A stretch of 39,789 bases of DNA, from the NCBI GenBank assembly GCA_020832465.1, contig JAFIER010000230.1, forward strand, positions 1-39,789, written 5' to 3'. The position numbers were made by a program, and so were the translations under genes. The notes below the pieces were generated by a model. The model was given only the letters and a program-made list of their open reading frames with translations, did no database searches and was not told the DNA's origin. Source of the DNA: Bernardetiaceae bacterium. Lineage in GTDB: Bacteria; Bacteroidota; Bacteroidia; Cytophagales; Bernardetiaceae. Shown here in pieces: positions 4,290 to 39,396 of the stretch (positions are counted from its first letter, which is position 1; each line of letters starts with the position of its first letter).

Positions 4290-4294
4290 AATTT

Positions 4295-8866: not shown

Positions 8867-10084
8867 ACTGAAGTTACGCAGAAAGACTTCTTATAAATAT
8901 ATTTAAATCTATTTATGTATTTTATGCGGCTAATGCTTCGCCTATGGGTGTAGCTACTTGCAGACGCATATCGGAAACCTCGCGCCAAGCATTTTTTAGC
9001 GCATTTATGTATATTTTACGTTTGAGTGCATAATGATTATGACCTAATCGCTTAGACAAACACTCCCAGTCAAATGTAGCGTAAAGTACTGCAAAACAAT
9101 GATTTATCTGTGTTCTTATACTATGAGCAGGTGATTTACCATAGTTAAAGTTGGTTTTAATACTGCGATGATGTTCCTCTACTTTCCACCGTTTTTGATA
9201 GATTGTAGTCATTGCCTCGTAAGAAAGGGATAGTTCGTTACTCACAAGATAGATAATGCCCTGACTTGAGTCCTTGTTTGTAAAGACTTGTTGGCAAAGA
9301 CGTAGCGGAAAAGCTACCCCCTTTACATACACATCATAGACACTTCCCTCTTCTAACGGTAACGAATCTACCCTTTCATATCTTCCAGCTTTTTTGTCCT
9401 CTAAACTTAAAGCAACCCCATGATTGTCGTTAAGAGGCAGAACAAACTTTAAATTTAAATCATTCAAATGCAGCATGTTAGCCTTCCCATTATACCAACT
9501 ATCAGCAAGTACAAAGTCAATGGCAAGTTGATTGCTTACGCTTTGCGATACAATACGTCTAAATTTGTCATTTTTTGTTTCGCTACTTTTTCGCTTCTGC
9601 TTACCTGTTTTTTTATCCTTAATAATCTGGTCTTTGATAACAAAATCAAAAGATACAGGAATGCTATAATCAGACACATAATAAAGTGCGCTAACCTGAT
9701 TAATGCCCTTAAGACAACGTCTTTTACTGTGATCAAAGTGCCAAGCTATTAAACCATTGACCTTTGAATGGGCTTTTTCTTGAATATGATCATCAATAAT
9801 CAGTAATTTTAAATCCGTAGTCTGTGCACTTAGCCGGCGTACCGTAGGCTTAACCAGCTGCCATAAGTCTTTACCTGTGTAATCACGGGCAGATAAAAAA
9901 CGTGTGCACTTATCATGTGATATTTCATTATCGGTAAGAGCCGATAAGTTCGTTGCAGTCGCCTGATTAAAAGCAACTTGCAAAAATTGCGAATAAATAG
10001 CCAACATTTTTTTGTCCATAATCACAAATTTACGTAAATTGCACCTATATAGCAAAAAAAAAATGCGTAGTGCGTAACTTCAGT
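8867..10084 (-). mobile_element. IS4-family insertion sequence (1218 bp), apparently intact
   Basis: Perfect 14-bp terminal inverted repeats ACTGAAGTTACGCA at 8867-8880 and 10071-10084 (reverse complement). Flanked by 5-bp direct repeat TATTT (8862-8866 and 10085-10089). Encloses one transposase ORF. Confidence 0.7.
8922..10055 (-). CDS. DDE transposase, IS4 family, 377 aa
   Basis: DDE-type layout with candidate catalytic Asp residues (LLIIDDH; VLADSWY). C-terminal YREK signature YQKRWKVEEHHRSIKT typical of the IS4 family. Confidence 0.7.
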   Translation of the reverse strand: MLYRCNLRKFVIMDKKMLAIYSQFLQVAFNQATATNLSALTDNEISHDKCTRFLSARDYTGKDLWQLVKPTVRRLSAQTTDLKLLIIDDHIQEKAHSKVNGLIAWHFDHSKRRCLKGINQVSALYYVSDYSIPVSFDFVIKDQIIKDKKTGKQKRKSSETKNDKFRRIVSQSVSNQLAIDFVLADSWYNGKANMLHLNDLNLKFVLPLNDNHGVALSLEDKKAGRYERVDSLPLEEGSVYDVYVKGVAFPLRLCQQVFTNKDSSQGIIYLVSNELSLSYEAMTTIYQKRWKVEEHHRSIKTNFNYGKSPAHSIRTQINHCFAVLYATFDWECLSKRLGHNHYALKRKIYINALKNAWREVSDMRLQVATPIGEALAA

Positions 10085-10131
10085 TATTTATTCTTTGGAT
10101 TTGTAACCAAGAAATTGATAATCAAGGGAAA

Positions 10132-12840
10132 TTGAGTAAAAATATTAAAGATAAGTTGGAAAAATCTTTTGATATAAGTTTCTTAAATTTTAATAAAATC
10201 GCTTACAGATTATTGATTTCTACTGCATCTGTGTCTTTCGAAAATACGAGTATTAATTTTGATAATTTAAAGCTAAATTCTGTTCAAATCAAAAACTTTA
10301 AAGGTTTTAAGGAGTGTGGAGCAGATGATAGAGGTTGTAAAATTGATATTCACAAAAATAAAACTATCATTTTTGCACCCAATGGAGGAGGTAAAACTTC
10401 TTTTTGTGAGGCTTTAGAATATAAATTAACAGGAGAAATAAAAGAGGCGAAAAGACGTGGATATGGCAAAAATCTAAACTCTTACTTTGAGAACTCTGAT
10501 AACAACGAAGTTATAAATCTGTTTAATGACAGTTTTGATAATCTTTCAGAGTCTGACAAAGAATATTTTAAAACTTGTTTTATTGAGAAAAACCGTATTC
10601 AAGAATTTGCTCTTTTAGGCTCAAAAGATACTGATACCAAAGAAAAAGATGTAATTGCTATTCTTTTTGGTTTGGAAGATTTACTTGAATTGACAACAAG
10701 ATTTGTGCAGCCCACAAGTTTTAAAATTGAACAAAAGAATACAGCCCAAGAAAAGTTAAAAAATTTGGAAAACACAAATACTAAGAACCTTACAAAGCAA
10801 AAAACAAGAACAAGCGACATTTCAAGCAAGAAAAAAGAAGTCTGTACCCTTTTTTCTTTACAAGAAATAGACTATGGAACAGAACTTTACAACCAAAAAA
10901 AACAAGATTTACAAAGTACCATCAGTGAATTAGAAAAATTAGTAAAACCTGATTCTAACAAACCTTTACAATATCATTCCAAAAATGATATTATGCAATC
11001 TTGTACTGATGTTCAAACTTTGTTTCGTGAATATCAAACCTTACAATCAGAACTAAATCAACAAAAGCAGAATGTAGATTTTAAAAATTTGTATAACGCA
11101 ATCAATGAATTTTCAAATCGCAATCTAAGTGCTTGCCCTGCTTGTGATACACCATTGAACAAAGTAGTTCGTAATCCTTTTGAAAAAGCATCAAAAGAGT
11201 TAGAAAATTTGAAAGAAATCAGTGAGAAGAGTACAAAACTCGAACAACAACTAAATAATATTTTATCAAAATATAACGACATCATAAAACTATTTCTAAA
11301 TACCTGTCACTCTAATCTCAAGGATAATAAAATGTCAAATGTAGATATGAGTAACAAAATCACGAGTTTGAGCGATATATTAGGAAACGATAAAAACAAT
11401 CCTGAAAAACAACTTGAACTTACTATTCAAGTTTGCGAATATGTTTTATCAAACCCTATTCCTTCTGAACTTGAATCTTATTTTACTCAATTAGAAAAAA
11501 TCCAAAAAGAACAAGTTGAAAAACAAAGTAGTATTCAAAGCAATCAACAAAAATTAGATCAAGCAAAAGGAAAAAGTAAAGAAGTAGATTTGCTAGAAAG
11601 ACAGTTAAAGGAGTTTGAAGATGAGTTAATTCAAATTAACGATGCTCTTACTCATTATCAATCTCAAAAGTCTGCTTTGCAAATTGAAGTTAAAAAAGAG
11701 AATCAGTTTAATACTTTTCTAAATCAAGTTCAAAGTGCATACAAAAATTTTTATAAAGACTTGCTAAACTTTAAATCAAAGGTAGAAGAACAAAATTTTG
11801 ACGGTATTCAAGATACTGCAACAAAATATTATCAGGCTATCAACAAACACGATACTGATGCAGAGCAAATAAAAAAAATTAAGTTTGTGAAAGAAGGAGA
11901 TAACTACCGAATTAAACTCATACTAAAAAATAACACCCAAGAACAAGATGCTTTTGCTTGTTTGAGTGAAGGACATACTCGTGCATTAGGGCTTTCTTTG
12001 ATGTTAGCCGTAGCCAAAGATAAACCATTTTTTATTTTTGATGACGTGGTAAATGCGATTGATACAGAACATAGGGCGAATATTATTGAAATGATTTTTA
12101 ATGATAAAACTCTTAAAAAAAAGCAGATGATTATAACTACTCATGATAGACTTTTCTGGGAAAGGTTTTGTAACGAGTCGTCAAAACGGAACACCAACAA
12201 TTATTCAAGTTATCTATTTACCACTTCTAAAAATTGTGGTGTATCGCATAAGTCTTATAATGTTGCTTTTGAAGCTAAGATTCAACAAGCCTTAAACGAT
12301 TTTGATATTAGGCAAGCATTGGTTTATTGCCGTATATGGTTCGAAACTATGGCTAAAGATTTCTGTATTAAAGAAAAAAAGAAAGCTGAAGGATATGTTT
12401 CAGAAAAAGGGGGAACTAAATATATAAATATAAGTATTGAAAGTATTTATAAAATACTTGAAAATCATTTTAGTACAAACCCTAATCAGAATTTAACGAA
12501 CTTACGAAGTAAATTTTCTTTTACGGCTCAAAATCAAGAAGCCCACGCGTTTTCAGAACACAACTACAATTTTATTCATTCTCAAACAAGTATAGAAGTC
12601 CAAGAAATTTTCAACTGGTTGAAAGAATTGAATTTTGATTTATTTGCAACCCCAAATGAAAAGAAAATTAGAGAAATTCAAGTTGACATTAAAAAAATTG
12701 AAGAAAAATTAGAAAAGTGTAACAGTCGTCTGTTATATACCAAAGAGGAAACAGAAAGACAAAGTAAAACAGAGGAAAAAGCGAATCTTGAAACGCAACT
12801 TCAAGAAAAACAAACAGAACTAAATCAATTAAATCAATGA
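10132..12840 (+). CDS. Rad50/SbcC-like SMC-type ATPase with zinc hook, 902 aa
   Basis: Walker A FAPNGGGKTSFCEAL. Coiled-coil arms of ~250 aa with CPAC (LSACPACDTPL) midway between Walker A and the signature motif (LSEGHTRALGLSL). Walker B FIFDDVVNAID. D/H-loop MIITTHD. ~230-aa C-terminal extension ends in a coiled coil. The ORF track begins at a TTG, 48 bp after the IS end, so the true start is uncertain. Confidence 0.65.
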   Translation: MSKNIKDKLEKSFDISFLNFNKIAYRLLISTASVSFENTSINFDNLKLNSVQIKNFKGFKECGADDRGCKIDIHKNKTIIFAPNGGGKTSFCEALEYKLTGEIKEAKRRGYGKNLNSYFENSDNNEVINLFNDSFDNLSESDKEYFKTCFIEKNRIQEFALLGSKDTDTKEKDVIAILFGLEDLLELTTRFVQPTSFKIEQKNTAQEKLKNLENTNTKNLTKQKTRTSDISSKKKEVCTLFSLQEIDYGTELYNQKKQDLQSTISELEKLVKPDSNKPLQYHSKNDIMQSCTDVQTLFREYQTLQSELNQQKQNVDFKNLYNAINEFSNRNLSACPACDTPLNKVVRNPFEKASKELENLKEISEKSTKLEQQLNNILSKYNDIIKLFLNTCHSNLKDNKMSNVDMSNKITSLSDILGNDKNNPEKQLELTIQVCEYVLSNPIPSELESYFTQLEKIQKEQVEKQSSIQSNQQKLDQAKGKSKEVDLLERQLKEFEDELIQINDALTHYQSQKSALQIEVKKENQFNTFLNQVQSAYKNFYKDLLNFKSKVEEQNFDGIQDTATKYYQAINKHDTDAEQIKKIKFVKEGDNYRIKLILKNNTQEQDAFACLSEGHTRALGLSLMLAVAKDKPFFIFDDVVNAIDTEHRANIIEMIFNDKTLKKKQMIITTHDRLFWERFCNESSKRNTNNYSSYLFTTSKNCGVSHKSYNVAFEAKIQQALNDFDIRQALVYCRIWFETMAKDFCIKEKKKAEGYVSEKGGTKYINISIESIYKILENHFSTNPNQNLTNLRSKFSFTAQNQEAHAFSEHNYNFIHSQTSIEVQEIFNWLKELNFDLFATPNEKKIREIQVDIKKIEEKLEKCNSRLLYTKEETERQSKTEEKANLETQLQEKQTELNQLNQ

Positions 12841-18948: not shown

Positions 18949-21525
18949 TTATGTAGCACTATCAATTGAGCCTATATCTATAATTTTGGTGCTCTCCTCT
19001 CCAAACTGACTCACAATCCGAATCGCAATTTTTTGATTAGGACTTTTGACTTCAATAGGATGAGATTGATAACCGTACAGACGGTCAAAAGCCTCTTCAT
19101 CAATTTCTATTTTTAACGTAGCTTCGAGCTTTTTCTTTGTACTTTCTTTGGCTAAGTTATCTAAGCCTCTACGCCAGTTTTTGAATGCGTCTTTATCGCC
19201 ACCGCAAAAGAATATCTGCCTAACGATAAAGCTGCTGCCATCATAATCATCATCGACCATCCAATAAGCAATATCGTGTAAGTCTCGCGCTTTAACTTCA
19301 TCTCTGATAGGGTCGTAAATATCTAAACCCTTGACTTCTACAAAAACACCTGTCTCGTCTTTTTTCAGGTCAATATCTGGCTCACCAATCGTTACAAAAC
19401 TTGCAGCTGACTTAGCAGGTTTCTTTTTCAAACCTTCTTGTAATAAATCATCGTGTATGCGGACTTTTGTAACTTCAAAAGTACCTACACTTTTCGTGTA
19501 CTGACCGCTTTCAATATCGCTTTCAAAGCTAAAACCTAAAATAATCAACCAATTCGCATCACCACGTTGGCGACACTCTTTAATTGAATCGTTTACTAAC
19601 TTCCTACTCACCGTACCAAACTTAGGTCCGATATGAAAATAGGCTTTCTCTTCACCTTTATCTGTAATGTAGAAACCCTCTGCATGTAAGGCTTCGCCAG
19701 ATAAAACCTCCACAGAACGAAAAACAACTTGCTCGTTTTTTCTGCCATTTTTGATGCCCGCACTTAGCAAATGTTCTTTGATAACCGCCTCGAAATTTTC
19801 ATTGGTTTCTAACTTCAAACGGTCATTATCTAACTCATCAGGGCTTGTAGGTTCAAAGTTTTGTAAAGTTTCTACTGTAAAAGGACCACTTACGCGAAGC
19901 ACCTTTTTGTCTATCTCGGGCTGATCGTAAAGCGTCTCCGTAGCAGGTGGCTCGTCGTTTGCCAATGCTTTAAGCGTGATATGCGGTACGGTTTTGTACA
20001 CAAAACCATGACGTATGTCCTCGTTTTGAGTATCGTAAAGCTTATAATAAGGATATACTGCCGTCATCAAACGCTGCTTGGCTATGTTCAAAGCTATCCG
20101 ACTCGTATCGATAGTGATCCAACGCCTACCCCACTGCTCCGCAACATAAGCCGTCGTACCACTCCCACAAGTAGGATCTAAAACCAAATCGCCCGGATCA
20201 GAAGTCATGAGTAAACATTTCATTATAGCTTTCTCATTTGTTTGGACTACATAAACTTTTGAGCTACTAAAACTCTGCTTTGTGTCTGACCAATGATTTG
20301 TTATTTCTGTAACAGGAAAATCATCTAAATATCTTTTATACATAATTGAACGCCCTGTTTTTAGTATTCTATCTTTTTCAGCCAGATTATCCATGCCCTC
20401 TTTTGTTGTTGACCAGTGCCTATTTGATGATGGTCTATAAACTTGACCATCAAACTTAAATTCAAAAGAACCTTTTTGAGACCATCCTGAACTTCTTAAA
20501 TCTCCTATGGCAAATACTTTTGCTCCATCAGGTATAAGTCGTTTGTCTAAAAACTCCTCTTTGGTTACATTGCGTACAGTACCATTAGGAAGCTCAAGCC
20601 ACTTGTAATTACTACCTATCTCCTTATCCATAAATAGTTTTCTCGATTTTAAGTCATCAACAGACTTAGCATACCAGATAATATAGTCTGATGTTGAAGA
20701 TAAAGTTTTAGTTGAAAAACTTGTGGTTGTCTCAAAACTTATCAAACTCACAAAATTTCCACTTCCAAATACTTCGTCCATTATATTTCTCACCAGATGC
20801 ACATTTTCGTCAGAAATTTGTACGAAGCAGGAGCCCGTTTTGTTGAGTAGTTCTTTGGCGATGAGCAGTCGGTCTCTCAGGTAGGATAGGTATGAGTGGA
20901 TACCGAGTTCCCAAGTGTCTCTGAATGCTTTGATTTGTTCGGGTTCTGCGGTGAGTGCATCGTCTTTTCCGTCGGCGACATTTCTGTCACCCATTTTGAC
21001 TTGCCAGTTTCCGCCATATTTTATGCCATAAGGAGGGTCTATGTATATGGTTTGAACTTGCCCTGCCATACCTTCTCTTTCGAGTAGGCTTGCCATGACG
21101 AGGTGGCTATCTCCTTGAATGAGTCTGTTTGTCCAGCCGTTTTTGTGTTGGTAATACTCTGATATTTTATCGAGTTCGTCTTTCTCGAGGGCATTTCCAA
21201 AAAGTTCATTGGTATCAAAGAGTTCTTTTTGGTCGCTTTCTTTTATTTTATATAGGTTTTGTATCAGGGTTTCGGGTGCAACATGTTCGTGTCGGTATAG
21301 GCTTCTTATATCTATACTGAGCGCGTCCTCTCGGTCGTCGTTTCCGTATTTGTTGAGCCAAAAGAGTTCTGGGTCTTTTCCTCGGTGCACAATAGGATTT
21401 TTGGGGATTTCGATTTTGTTGCTTCCGTTTTGCACTTTGTCATTCGCATCTTCATATCCAGCTTCTTCTTTGCTTGGGATATGTGAGCGTTGGCTATTTG
21501 TATGCTTTGTGGATTGTACTTTCAT
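18949..21525 (-). CDS. mod: Type III restriction-modification DNA methyltransferase (Mod, N6-adenine, beta class), 858 aa
   Basis: Motif [18 protein letters not shown] precedes motif [28 protein letters not shown] (permuted beta-class order). Start is 2 bp after the res stop. ~390-aa C-terminal extension after motif I. Confidence 0.8.
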
Positions 21526-21527
21526 TG

Positions 21528-24500
21528 TTATATACTTTGAATTTTTTCGGTTAATTGATTTCTGATATTTCTGATGTCATTTGCAATTTCGATAAAATGC
21601 CATTCGTGGTATTGGTATTTATCTTTGAGTGCATTGGCGGCGGGCAGCCATCGGTTTTCGACAAACCATTTTTTTTCGTCTTTATCTTGACTAAAACCAC
21701 TAATTTCGATAATAAGGTTTTTGAAGATTTTGGGATTTTGTTTAGATTTTACTTTGACGATAAAATCTGGGAAATATTTTTTGTCCTCTCCATCTTTTTT
21801 GTAAGGGATTGCAAAATCTAAGAAATCATTTTTTACATAAGCGATTACATTATCGAGTTCTTCTAAGGTTTTGGCACAAACTCCTTCCCATGTACTATCC
21901 ATAACGACATAATTAACGTGGCTTTTTTGTGTGGCATAGACTTCCCGTGTTGTGTTTCCGTTTACATATCTCGTACTGCCAAATGGATTGTAGTTGTTGA
22001 ATACGGGTTTGATAAACTCGATGGTATTTCGTTGAGTATTTATACCTCTTATAATGTGATCTACGGCTTTTTTGTGCTCATGAAAATAGAGTGTTTTTTT
22101 GAAATAAGGTTCACGATTAAGCACTGTAATTTTATGGTTGTACCATTCGGTTACTATACCTTTTAGTGTAGCAAATTTTTGAAATTCGGGTTCTCCTTCG
22201 TCATTACTAAAATGATATTTCATAAGCTCCACCGTAAGTTTGAAGATAATTTCTTGGTCTCGCTTTTCTAAGACATCGGCGAGTTGTATTGTTTCTTGTT
22301 TTGCAGAGACTGCGCTTTGCATTGTAGTTACTTTGGGTACTTTTGAGCCGTCGATTTCATAATTTTCTAAATTCGCAAAGTCGTGCGTGAGCGGTGCTTC
22401 TAAGTTTTCGGTTCTGTATGCAATAATATTTGGGAATGTAATTTCCATTTCCTGCTCTCTTTCCACAAGTGCATTGATATGGTGCATGTTTACGGGCTTT
22501 ACAACAGTATTCGTTTGTCCTGCTTTAAACATATTGAAAGGTACGCCTATAATGTGTGCATACTCTGGGGGGAATTTTTGAATGACAATTTTTCTTTTGT
22601 CATCTGTGGGGTTTCCGTCTTTATCATATCCTTGCAAAAAGTAATTGACTCTTCTTAATGCTCTTCCTGCTACTTGCTCGCAAAGTAGCTGTGAGCCAAA
22701 GGCACGCAGCCCCATGATGTGTGTAACGGTATTGGCGTCCCAGCCTTCGGTAAGCATAGATACAGAAACGACGCATCTTATATGTGCGCCTAATTTATTT
22801 GTCTGCCCTACTGTATTTACGACTTCACGCAATATTTCAGCATCGGATATTTTTTCTGTGCTTCCTTGCCCGTGCATGCGTGCATAGTCTTTTTTAAACT
22901 CTTCGATTTCTTTAGCAAAGATTTTTTTAAACTCTTTATTGATTTGTTCACCGTTTTCTAGTGCATCGCTATCAATAAGCAATGTAGGCGGTTTTTTTCG
23001 GGGTTTTGTTGTATCGGGGTCATAATTAGAAAATAAATCTTTTGCACCTACTTGAATATGCGTACCTCCCTCTCTATCAGTATATTCATATCCAGCGATG
23101 TATTTATATACTTCTTTGGATACGCTGGTATTATTACAGACTACAATAAATACAGGCGGTGTAGAAAATAAGGACACCCCGTCTTCTTGTATACTTCTTA
23201 CTCCTTTGTCGTATTTTACGTAATGTGAGTAAAACTGCTCTAAGGCATTTTTTACAAGTGCGGGTATTTTAGGTGCTTCTTCTCTAAACCTATCTCCTTT
23301 TGCTTTTGCTTCTGCTTTTCGTTTGCTTACACCTTTTTTGGGAAGTTCTTTTTTGACATGTTCATACAGGTTTTTGAGCACCGGCTTATCTATACTCTGA
23401 GTATCGTCAGTCTCTGGCATAAATGGAATTTTGACAAGTCCACTTTCTATTGCCTCCACTAAACCAAAGTCTGATACTACCCATGGAAACAAACTATAAG
23501 CCGTATAGCCCGAGCCATTTAGGTAATAGGGGGTAGCGGAGAGGTCATAGACCGCCTGCATTTTGAATTTTTGCGCAATATTGCGCAAACCGCTGAACCA
23601 GACGGCTGCTTTAGCATTTTCATCACCTTCATTATCGGTAGTTTTACTTTTAGACTTAGGTAGGTAGCAATGATGTGCCTCGTCGTTTAGTACTAAAAGT
23701 CGGCTTCCTGTTTTAAATTTTCCCAAGACACGCTTTACTACTTGCGAAAAACCTTCTTTATTATCTGTATCTATTTTTTCTCCTTTGATATTTGTTTTTC
23801 CGTCAAATGGAGTTTTTTTATTGCCTTGAAGTATTTTAGGTTCAAAGCTATGATAATTCGTAATGATTAGCCTTGCATTGAGATTTTGCAAGCGAGAAGT
23901 CATATTTGAAGGTACTAATCCTCGTATATAATAGTAATCTTCTCTATTATGTGTATGATTTTGATTATCAACAAATAGTACATTCAACCTGCTTTTGATA
24001 GTGATACCGGGAGCTACCACTAAAAAGTAATCTGCAAAGCGAGTATCATTTCTGTATTCTTGTCTGTTGAAATAGTGGTAACAAATTAAACAAGCCATAA
24101 CAACAGTTTTACCACTTCCTGTAGCCATTTTGAAAGCTATTCTAGGCAGTTGGTCTTCTGTATTTTTACTTACTGTTTGCTGTCCTTTACGTAAAAGGTT
24201 TAGAATATGTTGCCCTGGATTTGATTTCTCTGCTACTTCGTTAAACCATATCGCAGTTTCTATAGCCTCACGTTGTGCAAAAAACAGCTTTTTTACGGCA
24301 TGCCTTTCAGGATTATTAAACCAAAAGTTCAAAAGTTGCTTTGAAATTCTTGTTGTGTTGGGATAGCTACTAGCTCGCCACGCTCCTACCTCTTTTCTAC
24401 ACAGATTTACGATATGTTCTTCTTGACTACCAGCACTTTCATTCCATTCAAATATTTCTTTGCCTCCTTTTCGCTTAGTTGGCGCAACAGGAGTACTTTC

Positions 24501-24638
24501 TTTGAATATTCGTCGTCCTTTTCTGATTTCCGTATAGTCTAAGCTACCGTCACTATCAGTGCTATAATATAAAAGAGGTTCATCGTACGGACTATTTAAT
24601 ATCGGATTATCTTTGTTTGCAGTTTCTACTAAATTCAT
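21528..24638 (-). CDS. res: Type III restriction enzyme Res subunit (SF2 helicase + PD-(D/E)xK nuclease), 1036 aa
   Basis: Q-motif [10 protein letters not shown]. Motif [12 protein letters not shown]. Motif [12 protein letters not shown]. Motif III LSATPY. Motif [12 protein letters not shown]-terminal nuclease-like PDFIVKV...IIEISG. Confidence 0.8.
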
Positions 24639-24790
24639 ATAGTCAATGTTATTAAATTATGATTTCACTGTGCAAGATAAAAAATATTGATATTAAAAAC
24701 TATTTTAAGTCATACTTTTTATCGCAAACAATATTTATTCGTATACACACAAATAAGAACATAAATATATTTCTATACGTTTCTCTGCAA

Positions 24791-24880
24791 TTTTCCAGAA
24801 AGCGTCTGGAAAATTGGGTATTCACCTGAAAAGTTCCTGTCTGAATTTGCCAGAAAGCGTCTGGCAATTTGGGTATTTGA
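24791..24880. promoter_or_regulatory. two direct 35-bp repeats, each containing a 6-bp-arm hairpin (tccagaaagcgtctgga; gccagaaagcgtctggc), 150-240 bp upstream of res
   Basis: Repeats at 24791-24825 and 24846-24880. Arms differ by a compensatory pair (t..a versus g..c). Located in the res/mod promoter region on the minus strand. Confidence 0.35.
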
Positions 24881-25091
24881 GAAACAACAAACGCATATTT
24901 TGCAGATTACTACAAGGGCATCGTTCACCAAGCGTACTGCTTGTGTACGCGCCTGCGTGTGGATAGCTACAATGTCGCTTATAAGCGTTTCTAAGTGATT
25001 TTCTATTGTCATTGTACGCACTTTTGATTTTAAATAGTGCTGCGTGGCAATATAAGGATTTTTTGTTTTTTTACGTAAAATTTAAGTGCTT

Positions 25092-25239: not shown

Positions 25240-26337
25240 TCATCGCTTCCGAAGTTCTTTCAAAATAAAATTCTGCAATTCCTCTTCCGTAGGCAGTTGG
25301 ATTTTGTATTTCGAGATAAACATTTCGTTGCCTTGTGTGGGTAGGGTGTAGCGTGCCAAAGCCTCGTTTTTATCTGTAACCAACAAAATCCCAATAGGCG
25401 GATTGTCGGTTTCTTCTTTGATTTCGGCTTGGTAGTAGTTGAGATAGGTTTGCAGTTGGGCAATGTGTCCCGCTTGCATTTTATCTACTTTGAGTTCTAT
25501 TAAGATGTGGCATTTGAGCAAACGATGGTAAAAAACCAAATCTATAAAAAAATATTCTTCGCCTATCAAAATGCGCTTCTGCCTTGCCTCAAAACAAAAA
25601 CCATTGCCGAGTTCCAAAATAAAGTCTTGTAAGTGGGCAAGCAAGGCACTTTCCAAATCATTTTCATCAAAGGCTTGCTGTGGGCTTAGTCCCAAAAACT
25701 CAAAAACATACATATCCTTAATGGCATCTTGTGGCGTTTGTACGGCGATGGTTTGTTTTATTTTCTCAAAACTCAAGTCTTTATCCGCAGATAACCCCAA
25801 ACGCTGATAAGAAAGTGTATTGATTTGTCTTTGCAACTCCCGCACCGAAGGTGTAGTTTTGAGGGTAAGCATTTCGTAGTAACGGCGTTCTTTGGGATTT
25901 TCTATCGTCATCAAAATGGAAAGATGCGTAAATGAAATCCGTTGCAACAATAGCCTCGTATAATCAATTTCTTGATTTTCAGTATTTTGTAATTCGACCA
26001 TCACTGATGGTCGAATTGAGATAGGCAATAAAAATTGCTCTTGGACAAGTACCTGCCCTAAAAGTGGATAGGTTTGATAAAACTTTCTAAACCTTTTCAA
26101 ATGCGTAGCACTATTCAAACCCTTGATGGTTTTGAGTTCCTTGGCTAAGGTCGTAAAAAGTTTTGCGCCATACTTGGCTCTATCTTGCCCGTTTTGTTCA
26201 TACTCAACAATATACGCTCCGACGCACCAATTCCGAATCGTGAGCGACTGATTGATGCTTTGAGCGGCTCGGGCTTGCAGCTCGGCGTGAGTTTGAGTGA
26301 TGCTTTGTAGTAGATCGGCGAATTGCATAGACATCAT
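25240..26337 (-). CDS. DUF1016/YhcG-like PD-(D/E)xK nuclease family protein, 365 aa
   Basis: N-terminal helical YhcG-type domain. C-terminal nuclease core EFLGLSPQQAFDENDLESALLAHLQDFILELGNGFCFEARQKRI...FFIDLVFYHRLLKCHILIELKV (D...E.K). 63 bp downstream of and co-directional with 26401-29775. Confidence 0.7.
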   Translation of the reverse strand: MMSMQFADLLQSITQTHAELQARAAQSINQSLTIRNWCVGAYIVEYEQNGQDRAKYGAKLFTTLAKELKTIKGLNSATHLKRFRKFYQTYPLLGQVLVQEQFLLPISIRPSVMVELQNTENQEIDYTRLLLQRISFTHLSILMTIENPKERRYYEMLTLKTTPSVRELQRQINTLSYQRLGLSADKDLSFEKIKQTIAVQTPQDAIKDMYVFEFLGLSPQQAFDENDLESALLAHLQDFILELGNGFCFEARQKRILIGEEYFFIDLVFYHRLLKCHILIELKVDKMQAGHIAQLQTYLNYYQAEIKEETDNPPIGILLVTDKNEALARYTLPTQGNEMFISKYKIQLPTEEELQNFILKELRKR

Positions 26338-26400
26338 TACACCCTAAGCAGCTTGAAGATACTTAGGGTGTGAGATTTATAGATTTTAAAAATTAGTTTT

Positions 26401-29400
26401 CTACAAAATTTCCTTCAATTTTTGTACGCTATCATCTTGCACAAAATAGTTCATGTGATGGCAAGGAATATCGTAAATGACGGGTTTGTTTTTGCCACAA
26501 TCTTTGATGTCATCTACCAAAACAGCAATATCATTGGGCTTATTAGAGCTGACTAAATTGCCCATGCCCGCCATGACTTTCTCTACAATTTTTTCCATTG
26601 CCGTAGGATTTTCAGGCACAAAATCTTGTACATTGCCCGCCAAAATCAAATAAGGAATACCGCCCTCGCTGCCTTCGTCCTTGTTCAAACGGCGCAAAAA
26701 CTCGGACTCTTTGCCCATTTGTTCGAGCGTAACAAAAAGCGCCTTGCTCTGCTTGAGCGCACCTATAAGCCCCGCTGCCGAAAGCACTATGCCAAAGGGC
26801 GCAAGCAAATTCGCACCCAAGCCCATTGCCAAAATGGCAAACTTGCGGTACTGCTCAATTTTACCAAAAACAGAACCCGCATTCGGCGTGCCACACATAA
26901 TCAAACGATTCACAAAAGCACTACCCCCGCGCTGCTCAATCATATAACGAGAAACCAATCCGCCCATAGAATGTGCCACAATATCAACTTTTTTATCCGC
27001 CGAAATGCCGATGCTTTCATATTGCAAACCGTCTTTATACACCTCCGAATCGCCCACCAAAAGCCGCTTAAACTGATAAGCAATTTCGTTGATTTCGGTG
27101 TTCAGATTTTCATAATCAAAAGTCATAATCAAATCGTATCTGCCTGCTTTGACAAACTCATGACCCAAAACTGCCATCTCGGACGTATTGCCGATAATGC
27201 CGTGAACAAAAAGCAAAATCTTTTCGGCTTTAGCCACTCGCGCAGCCACTTCTTTGCGGTCTTCCACGTAAATGGGTTTGCCTGCTTCGTCATAATCAAT
27301 GGCGCAGAGTTTGAAAAAGCCCGTCGGTGGCATTTTCGTGAGCTTCGAGCTGACTTTATACAAACAAAACTTCAATGCCCTACCGAGGCTACGGCTCGAA
27401 GAAGATGTTTCAGGGAGATTTTGAATTTCCACAACTGAAGGGTCTTCTTCATTTGAGATGCCGATAGGAATGAGCGTATCACCATCGAGCGCCATCGGAA
27501 GCATTATTTCATCTTCATTTAAAAGCCCTTGATTCATTTTGAGACGAAGCGGATTTGTTTCACTTACGTCGCCTTGAATATTAGTGAGGCTAATCACTTC
27601 TTTGGCTTGAGTGCTTCGGCTCGAGCCGCTACTCAAAGATTGGAGCTGTAGCGAGTCATCGGCAATCCAATTTTTCCAACGTTTAGTACTCTTATCATTT
27701 AAACCCCGACCGCTGCTGCTTACGCTGCCAAAGGCTACTTGCGCCTCCACGCTATCGTGCGCCAGCACTTCAAAACCTTCAAACTTTGTGTTTTGAGTTT
27801 TTGAGATTTTGTCTTCATTTTTCAAAAGTTTTACGCCTACGTTGCGCACTGTCCAATCCTCAATTTTGAACGGAGAAGCGGCATTGTTTGCCTGCTGTCC
27901 GAAGCGACTGCCGACGGATTTGTAGCGTACGTTCAAGCTAAAATTATCTTGCGTCAGCACGTCGGGGTTGGTGCGTGTCGTGCTTATCAAAAACTTAAAT
28001 AACAAATCCGATTCGCTATCCTGCTCCTGCCCTTGCATAAAATTCAGTCCGTTTTTATCATCATAAATCAAAACTTCTTCATTTTTAGGCACAGGTACAT
28101 TATTGAGTTTGTAGATGCCGTAAAGCGGCGAAACTGCCAGTAGCGCAATATGCAACTCTGCCTCGTGTAGGTTTTTTACGTGGATTTTGCAAGGCAAGCC
28201 CAAGAAATTACCACGGCGGTCTTTGTCCAACAAAAACTCGAGGTCTTCGGAGCTATTGATATTATAGGACTCCCACTCACGATTGCGATAAAACTCGAAG
28301 CGCATCGGTAGGTCGCTGTCGCGAATTTCGGTATGCGGGTTTTTAATATCACGGAGGCGTTCCCAGCGTTGAATTTTGGCGAGGAGTTCGTTCCAATAGG
28401 GGGCGGGTTCGCGCCCAGCGGCGATGATTTTGTTCGAGAGGCGATGCACGAGTTCGTACACACCATCAGCATTTCGCACCAAAAAATAATCGGCTTCGGC
28501 TTGGCTTCGCGCTATGGCTACGGATAGCCCCGCCGTGAGTGCTTCGGGCTTAGCCATATCAGTATAAAACGAAAACACCGCCTGTGGAATGAAGGCATTG
28601 AGCGTAGCGGTATAGGTTTTTTCGGGGTCTAATTTATCTTCATTTTCTACCTTCATCAAAAAGGTATTGTCTATGAAAGTTTCATCGATTTGCGCTTCGG
28701 CAACTTTGTTTTTTCCCGAAAGGATGTCGACTTTTACGGTTCGGTCGTTCGCCTCTCTATCTACCAGTGGCATGCCGTGCAAAGCACCAGCTTTGATTTG
28801 CCATTTCTTTTCAGAAAAATAGACTTCCCATTCATCTTTGCGGTCGTCATTGGCAGTGCCTCTGAGGAAAGTTTTATAGACGGATTCGTTTCCGTAGGCA
28901 TCGACTTGTGGGGTCTGGCTGTTATCGATTTGTTTGATACGGGTTTGAATGCGCTCGAAAAGTCTGCCATAGCTCAAATTTGAAGATTCATTTTCTAAAA
29001 TATCGAGCAGTACGGTCGAGAAAAGCCCACGGTTTTCTTTGGTTTCCCAAGCTACCTGGGTATTGCTGCACGCCGAAAGTGTGATGTGGGGGGCAGCAGG
29101 GATTTCGATTTTGCCCGTATTTTTGAGCTGTTGAGCGTAGTATCCATCGGCATAATCCTCGATTTTACGGTTGTTGCCGTCTTTTTCGGCTTGGCGTTTT
29201 TTGCCGAGTTTGGCATTGCGTGTGCCCGAGCCAGAGTGGCAGCAGTCCAAAGAAACGGCAATATGAGGCTGATTTTGAGCGACTTCTTGAATCAGCACCG
29301 CCAATTCTTTGTCGGCTAAATCCATACCGCCCGGCTCTCGGCTATCGTAGCAAACGAGGGTTTCGTTTTTCTTTTCGGGAAAAAATTGATGAAATTCTAC

Positions 29401-29668
29401 GGGCGAACTCTCCCGTGAGCCGTGTCCACTAAAATGAAAAAAGGCGGTATCGCCCTGCTTGGCTCGGGCGAGGTGTTTTCTGAATCCTGCAATAATGGCA
29501 GCACGTGTAGCCTCTGCGTTGATAAGCACTTGGAGTTCTAACTCTTCGCTACTAAAGCGTTTTTGGAGTAGGGCTTGCATAGCTTGGGCATCAGCAGCGC
29601 AACCATTGAGCGGACTGACGGATTTGTAGTTGTCAATTCCGACGATAAAGGCAAAAATTTTAGCCATA
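26401..29668 (-). CDS. caspase-like (peptidase C14) domain fused to C-terminal alpha/beta-hydrolase (lipase/esterase-type) domain; 1089 aa from MAKIFAFIVGIDNY, or 1124 aa from the upstream ATG at 29775
   Basis: Caspase His/Cys dyad: FFHFSGHGS and LDCCHSGSG (DxCHSG metacaspase/orthocaspase signature). C-terminal hydrolase: oxyanion-type LLFVHGIIGNTSEM. Nucleophile elbow VDIVAHSMGGLVSRY (GxSxG). ~600-aa central region not recognised. Confidence 0.7.
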
Positions 29669-30140
29669 ATTTCTAAGGGGGTAAGAATTAAGTTAAGTTT
29701 TTGTGTACAATAGTTTTTTGTACGTAAAAAGAGGGGTTGGCGTTGTGTTTTTTTTGGATTGATTGCAACCGTCAAGAGGCTACCAATATGTAGTCCCTAA
29801 CGGGGCAAAAATGAACCTTTGCATCTGTAGCTACCAAGGTATACACCACCCCTCCCTCTTGGAACGTAGATACTCGATTTTCTCGAATAGTAAGTGCTTA
29901 GATTTGCTCATGATTCAACATAATTTTAAAGGTTATTAAGATTCCGAATTTACGAAACTTATGTGGATAAAGCAAAATTTATATAATTCTCATCTGAGCC
30001 AGAACCTTCTGCTTCAAGCTGCTGTAACTAAATACTCCTGCCTCAGTATTTAGCAACAGATATTACTTAAAAATTTTGATTACGCTAAAAAAACATAGAA
30101 AAAATTAGTAAAATTCGCAAAATTAGATTATATTTACACG

Positions 30141-30620
30141 GTGAAATGCGTTTTTTCAGATCGCAAATACCGTTTATTTACACTCGTTCAAAAACAACTA
30201 ATTGACTATTATATGATTACGGAAGTTGATAACAAATACTGGACTATTCAATACGACGAAGCCAATCAAATCATTCTTTGTGAATGGAAGGCAGAAGCGG
30301 AAGAATTAAATGATGAGTTATTTAAATCTGAAATGCGTGGGTATGCAGACATCGTAGAGAAATATCGTGCGCCTAAATTATTGCTCAATACACGCATTGG
30401 TTCTTATGCTCTCGCCCCAGATATACAAGAATGGGTAGCCACTGAAATAGCACCTCGCACCATGGGCGCAGGGCAGCGCAAAATGGCAATTATTCTTTCT
30501 GATAATTTGTTTGCACAAGTTTCAGTAGAGCAAATGTTGGAAGAAGGCGATATGCCGACCCTTATGCAACAGTATTTTGATGATAAGGAAGAAGCATTTG
30601 CTTGGCTGTGCGAAGACTAA
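30141..30620 (+). CDS. hypothetical protein, 159 aa (likely true start at MITEVDNKY)
   Basis: ORF only. Mixed alpha/beta-looking, acidic C-terminus, no motif recognised. Confidence 0.35.
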   Translation: MKCVFSDRKYRLFTLVQKQLIDYYMITEVDNKYWTIQYDEANQIILCEWKAEAEELNDELFKSEMRGYADIVEKYRAPKLLLNTRIGSYALAPDIQEWVATEIAPRTMGAGQRKMAIILSDNLFAQVSVEQMLEEGDMPTLMQQYFDDKEEAFAWLCED

Positions 30621-35736: not shown

Positions 35737-36006
35737 CTACCCATTTTCGATATAATCAAAAATAAAATCGCTTAACTGTTCAAATTCTTCATCATGTTTC
35801 AGTATTATTCTTGAAGAAAGTTTACTTACCCAAGCTTGAATTTCTGCCTTTGAGCTAAGATTGGATAAAAACTTAAAATTTGGATTTTCTATCTCAAAGT
35901 TTCCTAAATAATTTAAAATATCGCCTTTGAAAGTGTCTGCATAACTTTCTATATCTCGGTCTAAATACTCTTCTAAATACGATATTTTTTCAGCCAAGCT
36001 TAACAT
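35737..36006 (-). CDS. small acidic hypothetical protein, 89 aa
   Basis: Overlaps the upstream DUF3883 gene by 7 bp (translational coupling). No motif. Confidence 0.4.
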   Translation of the reverse strand: MLSLAEKISYLEEYLDRDIESYADTFKGDILNYLGNFEIENPNFKFLSNLSSKAEIQAWVSKLSSRIILKHDEEFEQLSDFIFDYIENG

Positions 36007-36782
36007 ATATCCGAAATTAAATGATACTCTTTTTTTTGTTTTGGTTTAATAATTTTCTCGATAAACTTCAAATTTTTAATAGGATTCTCAATTAGCAAAA
36101 AAGTTGGCAAGTCATTTAGATTTAGAACCACAGAAACGACATAATTTTGCTTATATTTAGAAGCCATTTTAAACTCTTTTTCAGTTAATCTGAACTTGCC
36201 TTTTTTCTCACGAATGCCTTTGACTTCCGCCAAATAGGTGCTATCATTTACATTGATTTGAAAATCATACCCATCTCCAAACAATCTGGCATCTTCTAAA
36301 GTGCCATTTTTAAATATCTCGAGAGAGTCAAAATTATTCATAAAATACAATTCAGCTTCTAATCCTGTTTTTTGTAATTTTTTAAATCTTGATTTTACAA
36401 TAGGCGTTACATCAGCAGAAATACTTTTTATCTTATAATTTTTTCTCAAATAGAGTTTTACAATATTAGCATAGCTTTTTGCCGACTCTTTTCCAAAAAG
36501 ATTATCTATTAAATGCTTTCTATGAATATAGGCATCTCCCTTCTGCCACCAACCTTTTCTTCCGTTATTTGGAAAAAAAGGATCGAATAAATCCATTCTA
36601 TTCTTGACCACACTACCCGTTTTGACAATTCCAATTTCAACAAAATAGTTAAAAAAGTCAGTTTTTGTAGTAAAGCCAAATTCTTGAATAAATTCAATAT
36701 CAAACTTAGATAATCCATAACCAAGCAAATTCAAAATTTCATAGTTTTGATGTTTGCTGCTTTCTTGTTTCATAGAGTACAA
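36000..36782 (-). CDS. DUF3883-like (restriction-endonuclease-fold) domain protein, 260 aa
   Basis: C-terminal half GLEAELYFMNNF...GDGYDFQINVNDSTYLAEVKGI...FRLTEKEFKMASKYKQNYVVSVVLNL matches the DUF3883 pattern (G.eaE / GyDf.i / EVKg / lt.nE..A / Y.v.vV.n). Confidence 0.6.
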   Translation of the reverse strand: MYSMKQESSKHQNYEILNLLGYGLSKFDIEFIQEFGFTTKTDFFNYFVEIGIVKTGSVVKNRMDLFDPFFPNNGRKGWWQKGDAYIHRKHLIDNLFGKESAKSYANIVKLYLRKNYKIKSISADVTPIVKSRFKKLQKTGLEAELYFMNNFDSLEIFKNGTLEDARLFGDGYDFQINVNDSTYLAEVKGIREKKGKFRLTEKEFKMASKYKQNYVVSVVLNLNDLPTFLLIENPIKNLKFIEKIIKPKQKKEYHLISDIC

Positions 36783-36918: not shown

Positions 36919-39396
36919 TTAACTTTTGCTTGGTGCATTGCCAAGGGCTGAGGTTTGAATAGCAGACTCGAGGGCTGTGCCTTTGAGCATATTGGCAAAT
37001 ACATCGGCGACGCTTTTGCCACCTAAGATAGAGAGCGGTGCCATGCTTTCAGCCATTTTAGCCGCTAAGGCACGGTCGCTGAAGTTTTGAAGGGCAGCTA
37101 CTAAATCCGGAGATATAGCCTCTGCTTTGCTCACTACTGCCTGCACTTCACCTTTGAGCTCTTCTAAGCGCAATTGCATCTGTTGCTCTGCAATAGCTAT
37201 ATCGATATCACTAACCGCTTTACGGCTCTCAAGGCGAGCGCTATTGATTTGAATCTGTAAATCCGCTTCTTTTTGTTCGCCCTCCAATTCTTTTTGGCGA
37301 CTTTCAATCGTCGAAGTAATGCGTGTCAGACTTAACTCAAGCTCTTTTTTCAACATCTCAATTTGCAAATCACGCTCCTCTTGCTTAGTTTTGGCACGCT
37401 CCTCAGCGATTTTTCTATCAATATCTTCGCTCTCTTTGATAAAAGAAAACTCCTGTCGCTTTGCTTGTAATGCTAATTTACGCCTTACTTCATTGTGCTG
37501 CGCTTCAGAAAGTATCGTGGAAATATCGTGATTCATAATATCTACACCGATGACCTCCACATCGTACACAAACATATTATTCTCTTCAAAAAAACGACCT
37601 TTTCTTTTACCATCTTCTGCCGACTGCTCGCCGAGTATGATATTGCGAATAATCGCAATGGCATCGCCATAAAAATCCGCTACATTATATTTTTTGCTCG
37701 AGTTGCGCAACACAGAACGCAGGTGGTCTGTCAAAAACTTGACGTAATTCTCCACATTAAACCACTTTTCGGGCTCTTTGATAAAATCTACCCGATAAGA
37801 TAAACGAACATCTATAGGGCAAAAATCCGCCGTCTCGATAGATACAATATCCGAAATTTGATTGTGCAAAGAACGCAAATATACGGTTTGAAGTACGTTT
37901 ACATCAGATTTCGGTGTGCCCGTAGAGAGGTCGACGACCCCCAAAATCTCATCGTACTCAAGGTTATACGTCTGCGGTCCGACAATCACTTTGCGTTCAC
38001 CTGTTTTGTTTACGACCAGCACCGCATAGCCCGTCCATACCTCAACCGTAACTGCCCCTTCATATTTTGTATCGAGAGTAACAGTGCGCGGTTTTGTAAA
38101 ATTATTATCCCTTACAAAGTCATCACCACCAATGCCCTCGGCTACATTTTGCGACCTTGAGGGCGAAGCTATTTTTTTGGTACGTACAACCTCCTTATCT
38201 TCTATAAAAAGGTCATCTTTGCCCTCCTCCAAAGCCGCGCGGCGCAACTGCCGATTGAAAGCCAATACTTCTTCGTTGCCAGGATACCATAACTTGGCTT
38301 GCTTTTCGGTCAGAATACGGCGCACAATGACCGCCTCTCGAGGGTCAGGTAAAAACATACAAGGACCTTTTTGCAATGCAATTTGCCCTGTGTTACGATT
38401 TAGAAAATAACGACCTTCGCCTTTGGGAATCGCTACGGCGTAATAAATCTCTTGCTTTCCATAGCGAATCAGTGCATGCTCAGGGCGTGGAAAATAAATT
38501 CGCTGCTCTTTGCCCGTTATAAAAAGCTCATCACCAATGTTGTATGCTTTATCGCCTTCTTGGTAAGCCGTAATTACTTTTACATAAATACCGCTAATTT
38601 CATTGAGCTCAATCGCTTTAAACTTGCGAAAACCATCTTTGACTACAAAAGTCTCCGTAGGCTCAGGAAAAACAACCGCCGGCCCCTCGATAAATCTTTT
38701 GTTGCCATTCTCATCTAACAAAATGCAATACTCCAACCGCTCGAGCGTAACGGCATCGCGCACATAATTGCCATTTTTATCGGGCACGACCTCCATACCT
38801 GTCGGAGGAATATAAAACGAAATATGAGTGCCTTTGATAATAAGCTGCTGACCCGTAGTAAAAGTAGGACTATCGCTTTCGCCGACAAGACTTGTATCTT
38901 TACCCCCTTCACTCGCCACATTAGACTGCTTCTTGACTACGGCATTTTCCCAGTTTTTGCGTGCCTGCTCCTCGTCATAAATCCGCACCACCAAATATTG
39001 ATTAGAGCGCAACTGATGACCCGGAATAATGCGTACCATCTGACCAGGCCAAAGCGCAAAAAAGGTCGGACCTGGTAGATTCACTTTCCGTCCAATATCG
39101 AGCTGTGAAATGCTATTAGATGTAGCTTCTTTCGGTTGCTTGGCATCATGGGCAGGATTTTTCAATACAATGTACCAGCCCTCGGGAGCTGTAGCAAAGG
39201 TTTGTATAGACTCTTCTAAAGAGCAAATACAAAACTGCTTTTTGTGGGAATCAAAATATACGGGTTTGTCCGTATTTGCCAAACTTGTTTTGTAAGGACC
39301 TACATAAGTGTTGATATGTCCTTTCGTTTGGTCAGAAATAAAAGCAAATTCGTTGGGGGCGAGTACTAAATCTCGCTCGCGGCTTGAGTCTGACAT
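36919..39396 (-). CDS. major vault protein (MVP) homologue, 825 aa
   Basis: N-terminal repeat LVLAPNEFAFISDQTKGHINTYVGPYKTSL parallels the first eukaryotic MVP repeat [29 protein letters not shown]. Several further ~55-aa beta-rich repeats. Shoulder-like segment IETADFCPIDVRLSYRVDF (cf. [21 protein letters not shown]). Long C-terminal cap-helix-like coiled coil (EERAKTKQEERDLQIEMLKKELE...). Confidence 0.7.
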   Translation of the reverse strand: MSDSSRERDLVLAPNEFAFISDQTKGHINTYVGPYKTSLANTDKPVYFDSHKKQFCICSLEESIQTFATAPEGWYIVLKNPAHDAKQPKEATSNSISQLDIGRKVNLPGPTFFALWPGQMVRIIPGHQLRSNQYLVVRIYDEEQARKNWENAVVKKQSNVASEGGKDTSLVGESDSPTFTTGQQLIIKGTHISFYIPPTGMEVVPDKNGNYVRDAVTLERLEYCILLDENGNKRFIEGPAVVFPEPTETFVVKDGFRKFKAIELNEISGIYVKVITAYQEGDKAYNIGDELFITGKEQRIYFPRPEHALIRYGKQEIYYAVAIPKGEGRYFLNRNTGQIALQKGPCMFLPDPREAVIVRRILTEKQAKLWYPGNEEVLAFNRQLRRAALEEGKDDLFIEDKEVVRTKKIASPSRSQNVAEGIGGDDFVRDNNFTKPRTVTLDTKYEGAVTVEVWTGYAVLVVNKTGERKVIVGPQTYNLEYDEILGVVDLSTGTPKSDVNVLQTVYLRSLHNQISDIVSIETADFCPIDVRLSYRVDFIKEPEKWFNVENYVKFLTDHLRSVLRNSSKKYNVADFYGDAIAIIRNIILGEQSAEDGKRKGRFFEENNMFVYDVEVIGVDIMNHDISTILSEAQHNEVRRKLALQAKRQEFSFIKESEDIDRKIAEERAKTKQEERDLQIEMLKKELELSLTRITSTIESRQKELEGEQKEADLQIQINSARLESRKAVSDIDIAIAEQQMQLRLEELKGEVQAVVSKAEAISPDLVAALQNFSDRALAAKMAESMAPLSILGGKSVADVFANMLKGTALESAIQTSALGNAPSKS

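Follow-up and report, generated by a model that had tools for sequence, protein, structure and literature searches.

The window studied here, a stretch of 39,789 nucleotides of contig JAFIER010000230.1 from a Bernardetiaceae bacterium, encodes a protein of 1088 amino acids, hereafter T, in which a caspase-like protease, an array of immunoglobulin (Ig)-like domains and a lipase-like alpha/beta hydrolase follow each other on one chain. On balance, we favor reading T as a caspase-gated lipase, that is, a cytoplasmic single-chain protease-effector that would serve as a latent cell-death (abortive-infection) effector of the STAND-NTPase conflict-system kind. T would stay inactive until either its own caspase, through induced proximity, or a partner protease (CHAT or a caspase-nSTAND1 sensor) becomes active. 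The activated protease would cut conserved Arg loops ahead of the hydrolase, and these cuts would free or unmask the C-terminal hydrolase, which would then attack membrane lipids and lead to cell death. In most genomes the trigger would be an adjacent nSTAND1 sensor together with a second protease. For T of the window, self-activation or triggering in trans would have to be assumed, since the gene stands solo in a defence island. A protease-activated lipase, an idea already voiced in a preliminary description of this DNA, appears to agree with the conserved Arg loops and with a two-gene precedent, LcCaspase/LcHydrolase of Lysobacter capsici, where the hydrolase is toxic only after cuts at two Arg (R|G) (Evans et al. 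2025, 10.1101/2025.11.14.688446). The parts of T, with residues numbered from an internal Met, are the following:

26401..29667, minus strand: whole gene of T, caspase / Ig-like / alpha/beta hydrolase, 1088 amino acids; ATG 29665-29667, TAG 26401-26403
29668..29775, minus strand: upstream extension of 36 codons from a TTG, probably untranslated
28882..29667, minus strand: peptidase C14 domain (metacaspase/orthocaspase type), residues 1-262; H82 at 29422-29424, C143 at 29239-29241; S1 pocket C23, D26, S80, D141
29167..29229, minus strand: flexible segment just after the catalytic Cys, residues 147-167, delimited by conservation and a low predicted local distance difference test score (pLDDT); R150 and R167 invariant, R158 as 48 Arg and 2 Lys
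27388..28881, minus strand: middle region, residues 263-760; Ig-like beta-sandwich domains and one long helix (residues 422-440)
27391..27906, minus strand: stretch with four conserved Arg in low-confidence loops; R588 at 27904-27906, R654 at 27706-27708, R684 at 27616-27618, R759 at 27391-27393
26404..27330, minus strand: lipase-like alpha/beta hydrolase (DUF7379/DUF676/PGAP1), residues 780-1088; H822-G823 at 27199-27204, S900 at 26968-26970, D1046 at 26530-26532, H1071 at 26455-26457
26743..26847, minus strand: hydrophobic insertion at the lid position, residues 941-975, RKFAILAMGLGANLLAPFGIVLSAAGLIGALKQSK, of low pLDDT and directly after GTPN

The caspase fold of the N-terminal domain, set beforehand as a test of this assignment, was borne out by Pfam, by sequence matches to solved metacaspases and by Foldseek. 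Peptidase_C14 (PF00656) covered residues 5-257 (E 1.3e-26, 94.2 bits versus a Pfam cutoff of 21.4), the PADLOC 'caspase' model matched with an E value of 1e-35, and phmmer related the domain to MCA2 of T. brucei (TbMCA2) at 1.4e-8. The model of full-length T obtained with AlphaFold2 had a mean pLDDT of 80 and a predicted template modelling score (pTM) of 0.60, the caspase domain exceeding a pLDDT of 90. Its best Foldseek matches were AtMC9, AtMC4, GSU0716 and MALT1, with E values down to 5e-12 and a probability of 1.00. Conservation was judged on 50 full-length homologues with 31-45% identity to T. The dyad H82 and C143, proposed to be catalytic in the preliminary description, was kept in 50/50 of them, as were D26 and D141 of the S1 pocket. 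Residues C23, D26, S80 and D141 of T align with C92, D95, S156 and D211 of TbMCA2, which we take to be the basic-P1 pocket of that structure. Because the pocket residues align in this way and D26 and D141 are invariant, the best reading of the N-terminal domain, predicted from sequence, is that of an Arg/Lys-specific protease. The NCBIfam model of the EACC1-associated caspase (NF047832) reached 43.6 bits on T, below its cutoff of 140, and an EACC1 gene was not seen nearby.

T shares with the metacaspases and MALT1 (TbMCA2 4af8, AtMC9 8a53, AtMC4 6w8s, GSU0716 3bij, MALT1 caspase-Ig3 4i1p) the caspase-hemoglobinase fold, the His-Cys dyad, the DxCHSG motif and the acidic S1 pocket, and with MALT1 also an Ig-like domain following the caspase domain. 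T differs from these proteins in that it has no eukaryotic p10-type C-terminal region, carries three invariant or near-invariant Arg right after the catalytic Cys and continues with further Ig-like domains and the hydrolase. The flexible segment after the Cys (residues 147-167) is a candidate autoprocessing linker, which may be the equivalent of the p20/p10 linker.

Between the two enzymatic domains, the preliminary description had left about 600 amino acids unassigned. The region measured ~500-520 residues (263-~780), and the structure prediction proposed there for it yielded an array of Ig-like domains: modelled alone, the middle region reached a pLDDT of 84.9 and a pTM of 0.82, with beta-sandwich domains and one long helix. 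For residues 263-760, no Pfam family, no sequence relative in the PDB and no enzymatic fold were found. In the full-length model, low-confidence segments make up 79/1088 residues (146-151, 584-601, 652-660, 682-685, 754-775 and 955-974). Highly conserved Arg occurred in five of these six segments and was absent from the sixth, the lid insert 955-974. R150 was present in 50/50 homologues, and a Lys or Arg was found at the position of R588 in 43/50, of R654 in 49/50, of R684 in 46/50 and of R759 in 50/50. The low-pLDDT loops were thus ~8-fold enriched in conserved basic positions (7/19 within 79/1088 residues, Fisher p = 2e-4). The usual context of the loop Arg in the family is [S/T]-R-[G/S], and [ST]R[GS] occurred 2.8 times per family protein versus 0.8 times in shuffles.

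Conserved Arg in flexible loops, taken together with a caspase predicted to be Arg-specific, suggest that the loops are cleaved and the lipase released. We infer a protein that would be Arg/Lys-specific in its protease part, would be cut at its loops, would act on lipids, would be toxic and would serve in defence; the loops of R588, R654, R684 and R759 are the candidate cleavage sites. A division into two modules was also visible in shorter paralogues of 620-734 amino acids, in which the caspase is followed by only the initial ~325-360 positions of the middle region and which end near the R588 loop. Most of them are encoded beside or near a full-length T:

L027 7997-9859, L073 13831-15843, L066 4985-7105 and L058 1307-3511: short paralogues without hydrolase, which retain roughly two thirds of the middle region, counted from its start

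Since they stop near R588, they support a view of T as a protease-Ig module followed by a pro-region with the hydrolase. The same paralogues fit, however, an ungated effector with two activities, in which protease and hydrolase would act independently once switched on, for instance by oligomerisation, and the Ig-like region would be a mere scaffold or interaction platform. Both active sites are intact and invariant, caspase-like proteases without effector can defend alone, and a 2020 review took cyanobacterial fusions of an orthocaspase with an abhydrolase as 'dual specificity' enzymes (PMC7475262). We nevertheless consider independent action unlikely: it leaves unexplained why near-invariant Arg, matching the predicted P1 residue, sit in poorly conserved disordered loops, and it is contrary to the zymogen activation shown experimentally in the closest system.

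The C-terminal domain, described earlier as a hydrolase from its HG and GxSxG motifs, proved to be one by Pfam matches above the curated cutoffs, by invariance of these motifs and by matches to lipases in the PDB. On residues ~813-955, DUF7379 was found at 2.8e-11 (44.1 bits versus 33); DUF676 (2.6e-8, 34.1 versus 20.3) and PGAP1 (4.6e-6, 27.0 versus 24.3) matched there as well. The oxyanion residues H822-G823, the elbow S900-x-G902-G903, D1046 and H1071 were invariant among the homologues. S900, D1046 and H1071 stand in canonical sequence order and probably form the Ser-Asp-His triad that had been set beforehand as a test of the hydrolase assignment. D1046 is the likely triad acid, since the canonical acid position after beta7, 1012, is unconserved and occupied by Asn in T of the window. 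A profile of the hydrolase alone (A3) gave 28 matches in the PDB at E<=0.01, namely lipases, phospholipases, esterases, alpha/beta hydrolases under generic names and one protein without a name, with no protease or other enzyme class among them. These included the putative lipase 7x2p (4e-7), B. subtilis LipA (~1e-6), Burkholderia and Pseudomonas lipases (~1e-5), BlEst2 and PlaB, and the alignments spanned the HG motif, AHSMGG and GTPN. Foldseek likewise matched the C-terminus of the T model to a Bacillus lipase. The most hydrophobic segment of the family corresponds to residues 943-972 of T, where family I.2 lipases have their lid, and a hydrophobic lid suggests a membrane target for the hydrolase. 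Compared with the Family I lipases (LipA 1i6w; 1ys1, 1tah; 7x2p; PlaB 6zth), T has the same HG, A-H-S-M-G-G elbow and GTPxxGS strand, and its lid occupies the equivalent place in the topology. In contrast to them, only the N-terminal half of its hydrolase aligns, the Asp/His half lying beyond a longer hydrophobic insertion; a secretion signal is absent, and the domain is found only at the C-terminal end of proteins built like T.

LcCaspase/LcHydrolase and T have in common a caspase-superfamily protease, an alpha/beta hydrolase with lipases as nearest relatives, a death-effector logic, an Arg-directed motif (Arg-Gly there, [S/T]-R-[G/S] in T) and an association with sensors built of a STAND NTPase and a beta-propeller. 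In Lysobacter, however, one gene encodes the protease together with the sensor and a second one the hydrolase, which has ~300 amino acids and is cut twice inside its fold, whereas T is one chain of 1088 residues with an Ig-like spacer of ~500 amino acids, Arg upstream of the core and a sensor that is separate or absent; T of the window has no sensor domain of its own. T was set beside LcHydrolase by the published description of the latter.

Several points weigh against a caspase-gated lipase. The family of T is known from sequence, models and genomic context alone. No conserved Arg was found in the loops of the hydrolase core; those that are conserved all lie upstream of it, and since they lie before and not inside the core, the published double-cut mechanism of LcHydrolase is not simply transferable. 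The strict [ST]R[GS] motif is present at 2/5 sites in T of the window (both SRS, at 684 and 759), with Arg at 5/5. No CHAT, caspase or nSTAND1 gene adjoins T in the window, where the nearest nSTAND1 gene (4295-5938) lies ~20.5 kb off. The lipid substrate, finally, is a prediction from likeness to lipases only. For LcHydrolase, HHpred also matched oligopeptidases (10.1101/2025.11.14.688446), which would suit a hydrolase that is not a membrane lipase and cleaves bonds of a different sort (ester, thioester or peptide), as in lipoprotein deacylation or on cell-wall substituents, so that killing would occur by other means than membrane lysis. Sub-threshold Pfam matches of the T hydrolase to Palm_thioest, LCAT and BioG, and genes for muramidases, chitinase-like or peptidoglycan-binding proteins in some homologue loci, point in this direction. 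As the solved structures matched were lipases, phospholipases, esterases, generic alpha/beta hydrolases and the unnamed protein, and no protease, and as T and Bacillus LipA have the same AHSMGG elbow and the lid position is taken by the most hydrophobic segment, we regard a substrate of this other kind as quite doubtful.

The architecture of T is widespread and nearly always complete. A word-indexed search returned 1,866 homologues, of which the best 120 were all ~1,060-1,145 amino acids long with the same two Pfam domains. An exhaustive search of 1.84 billion representatives with the C-module (residues 590-1088) gave 1,448 relatives, and for 476 the E value was <= 1e-30; nearly all of the best 150 had ~1,080-1,130 amino acids with the module at the C-terminus. 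A naturally split C-module was not found, the short representatives inspected (two) being contig-edge fragments. Middle and hydrolase modules were seen in no other protein of 85 loci. At least 457 genome matches came from Bacteroidota, Cyanobacteria, Planctomycetota, Proteobacteria, Acidobacteriota and Chloroflexota. Full-length copies are carried by conjugative plasmids of Nostoc and Rhizobium, and homologues also adjoin integrases or restriction-modification (R-M) genes. On the Nostoc plasmid pNLP1 (L094 3491-12664), WP_104910174 unites in 3,057 amino acids T, a second caspase, nSTAND1 and a Peripla_BP_6 ligand-binding domain; P0201 (2,973 amino acids) has the same layout, judged by reading its sequence. 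The occurrence of T and a caspase-nSTAND1 in one chain is evidence, by gene fusion, that sensors of the caspase-nSTAND1 type are working partners of T. Two further variants were noted: P0121 (1739 amino acids, 44% identical to T) has an N-terminal extension of ~640 residues, leucine-rich repeat (LRR)-like by eye, and P0131 (1404 amino acids) a C-terminal tail like a short-chain dehydrogenase.

The genes around T homologues point to the same partners. Neighbours were clustered in 84 loci, and context was counted in the 48 loci that offer 5 kb or more on each side (47 without the window). An nSTAND1 NTPase was found within 10 kb in 37/47 loci; with the window, the count is 38/48, its nSTAND1 being the distant one mentioned above. 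In 25/48 loci, nSTAND1 lies downstream on the same strand, at most three genes from T. A second protease was present in 28/48 loci, CHAT in 16 and another caspase in 14. Pfam confirmed the neighbour clusters of nSTAND1 (with or without WD40) and CHAT, and the family caspase hidden Markov model (HMM) matched the N-termini of 23 nSTAND1 neighbours in all loci taken together. Individual loci also hold EAD11-tagged CHAT and SIR2 as well as genes of the MoxR-vWA type; nSTAND1 and the EADs were defined by Kaur et al. 2021 (PMC8195603). Two unannotated genes after the CHAT genes in L086, considered as stand-alone hydrolases of the Evans type, had no GxSxG and no HMM similarity and were dismissed as such. 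Kaur et al. 2020, the first to point out the pairing, described the caspase domains of such conflict systems as invariably accompanied by an adjacent gene for an alpha/beta hydrolase (PMC7159879).

The presence of CHAT or caspase-nSTAND1 beside T in many loci suggests an initiator/executioner arrangement. In this respect, T loci resemble the proteolytic cascade from SAVED-CHAT to PCaspase described for type III-B CRISPR/CBASS (Steens et al., 10.1101/2023.06.23.546230): both have two co-encoded caspase-superfamily proteases, in T loci a CHAT, often with EAD11, or a caspase-nSTAND1 adjoining T. They differ in the sensor, which is a STAND NTPase instead of cyclic oligoadenylate (cOA)/SAVED, in that T has its own lipase-like effector, and in that no second protease is near T of the window. 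Tentatively, and as a possibility well short of our favored reading in confidence, the T family may form the executioner tier of an apoptosome-like pathway. An nSTAND1-WD40 sensor (or one with LRR or a ligand-binding domain) would oligomerise and activate an initiator CHAT or caspase. By cutting T at the conserved Arg loops, the initiator would unleash T both as executioner caspase and as membrane lipase, in parallel to the sequence of Apaf-1, caspase-9 and caspase-3, with the killing enzyme built in. The solo clade including the window would then be a self-triggering single-gene version with the Ig-like array as sensor.

A solo clade is suggested by the relatives of T. Relatives at 37-38% identity to T are located in CHAT/nSTAND1 clusters, and the closest relatives, at 43-45% identity (P0002, P0003, L004), are solo in unrelated neighbourhoods. 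The neighbours of T in the window, as far as they bear on its role, are the following:

25240-26337, minus strand: YhcG/DUF1016 PD-(D/E)xK nuclease, PADLOC candidate system PDC-S02 (1.6e-115), 63 nucleotides past the T stop and on the same strand
18949-21525 (Mod) and 21528-24638 (Res), minus strand: Type III R-M pair, beyond YhcG
3339-7557, plus strand: STAND/NLR-like trio of SIR2_2 (3339-4289), nSTAND1 NTPase (4295-5938) and LRR protein (5929-7557)

The YhcG/PDC-S02 nuclease and the Type III R-M pair adjoining T support a role in defence, as does the occurrence of homologues on plasmids and near integrases. A YhcG counterpart was absent from all homologue loci examined, hence there is no conserved pairing of T and YhcG. 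A physiological role, with T acting in developmental or stress cell death or in the turnover of proteins and lipids in filamentous or multicellular bacteria and its place in a defence island being incidental, would be in line with other observations. The family is found above all in filamentous cyanobacteria, Saprospiraceae/Chitinophagales, Planctomycetota and comparable groups, close relatives lie among housekeeping genes, and orthocaspases have been discussed in cyanobacterial programmed cell death (PMC7475262). The strong linkage, and sometimes fusion, to nSTAND1, CHAT and EAD11 conflict genes, the plasmid carriage, the integrase neighbours and the R-M and PDC-S02 genes in the window all speak for conflict instead, and we see little chance that T is merely physiological.

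It could further be argued that T of the window is an orphaned, non-functional remnant of a larger nSTAND1/CHAT system, since it has no adjoining partner gene as opposed to 42/47 other loci with one within 10 kb, and since a transposase and compositionally odd DNA occur elsewhere in the window. We think this very improbable: the gene is full length with all invariant residues intact, and the closest relatives are likewise solo in unrelated contexts, which together suggest a maintained stand-alone clade rather than decay. The SIR2-nSTAND1-LRR trio was considered as the cognate sensor of T. It lies ~19-20.5 kb off across housekeeping genes and is without EAD11; a link is at most tentative. Among the 84 loci, the closest relatives of the window SIR2 and nSTAND1 adjoin T homologues (L021, L015) and carry EAD11; neither T nor the SIR2 of the window showed an EAD.

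The open reading frame (ORF) from which the preliminary description had started, 26401..29775 on the minus strand with 1124 codons from a TTG, was found exactly as given there, as were the motifs quoted. The codons of FHFSGHGS (H82), DCCHSG (C143), VHGIIG (H822-G823) and AHSMGG (S900) were checked on the sequence. Its proposal that translation starts at an internal Met agrees with the NCBI record 'caspase family protein [Bernardetiaceae bacterium]' of 1088 amino acids, identical from this Met on, and with the homologue alignments, which start at the same residue (residue 37 of the TTG-initiated ORF); only the coordinate had to be corrected, to 29667 instead of 29668. Because the NCBI model omits the TTG extension and the alignments begin at the Met, this extension is probably untranslated. 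An antisense ORF of 270 amino acids at 26626-27438 (plus strand), wholly within the T gene, was taken for a shadow ORF, such as long coding regions produce, and not for a gene. Scans for sigma-70 promoters and intrinsic terminators around the T gene gave site counts no higher than in shuffles and are uninformative on an operon structure with the downstream YhcG gene. The guanine-plus-cytosine (GC) content of the T gene, 0.44-0.46, is above that of its flanks; as equally high stretches occur elsewhere in the window, we make no claim of horizontal transfer from it.

Some observations concern the surroundings of T. The spacer between the T stop and the YhcG start (26338-26400, minus strand) contains a perfect 9-bp inverted repeat, CACCCTAAG ... 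CTTAGGGTG, which ends 2 nucleotides before the YhcG ATG, is not followed by a T-run and was not called in the terminator scan. An 82-amino-acid ORF at 24773-25021 (minus strand) looks by eye like an N-terminal DUF1016 fragment, perhaps the remnant of a second copy, and the C-terminus of Res (21528-24638) gave a weak TnsA-like endonuclease signal under the Pfam cutoff. Upstream of T and divergent from it are a peptide deformylase gene and an ORF of 159 amino acids (30141-30620, plus strand) with a sub-threshold SpoIIAA-like (STAS) match (E 0.005). Farther away, a DDE transposase (8922-10055, minus strand) stands beside a 902-amino-acid SMC/LmuB-like ATPase (10132-12840, plus strand); this stretch (8922-12840) has a GC content of 28-31% and resembles inserted foreign DNA, and no Lamassu partner genes were identified. 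A bacterial homologue of the major vault protein of eukaryotes, with 825 amino acids and the domains MVP_shoulder (2e-26) and Vault_3, is encoded at 36919-39396 (minus strand), and beside it a NOV_C-domain protein (36000-36782, minus strand).

Fusions of a caspase with a hydrolase have been catalogued before and are uncharacterised as a family. The 2020 review listed three cyanobacterial orthocaspases with an 'abhydrolase' domain, Osc7112_0662, Cri9333_0714 and Nos7107_1322, treating them without an analysis of context, cleavage sites or structure (PMC7475262). Like T, they have an N-terminal C14 and a C-terminal alpha/beta-hydrolase domain, and by their description they likely belong to the T family. 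Two of them were predicted as 'transmembrane', which is probably due to the hydrophobic lid segment seen in T. No paper was found in the literature on DUF7379 or on the combination of C14 with DUF676. New here, by computation, are the Ig-like array, the conserved Arg loops, the near-obligate fusion, the linkage to nSTAND1 and a second protease and the solo clade.

That death effectors gated by a protease are a dominant principle of bacterial immunity is a very recent finding. The T family brings protease, putative pro-region and hydrolase together in one polypeptide, and in the clade of the window it does so without a partner gene. T may therefore offer a compact single-gene system for asking how a caspase licenses a lipase-like toxin, with C143, S900 and R588/R654/R684/R759 as residues to mutate. 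Its linkage and occasional fusion to caspase-nSTAND1 sensors would furthermore make the family a workable bacterial model for a caspase cascade with two tiers below an NLR-like ATPase.

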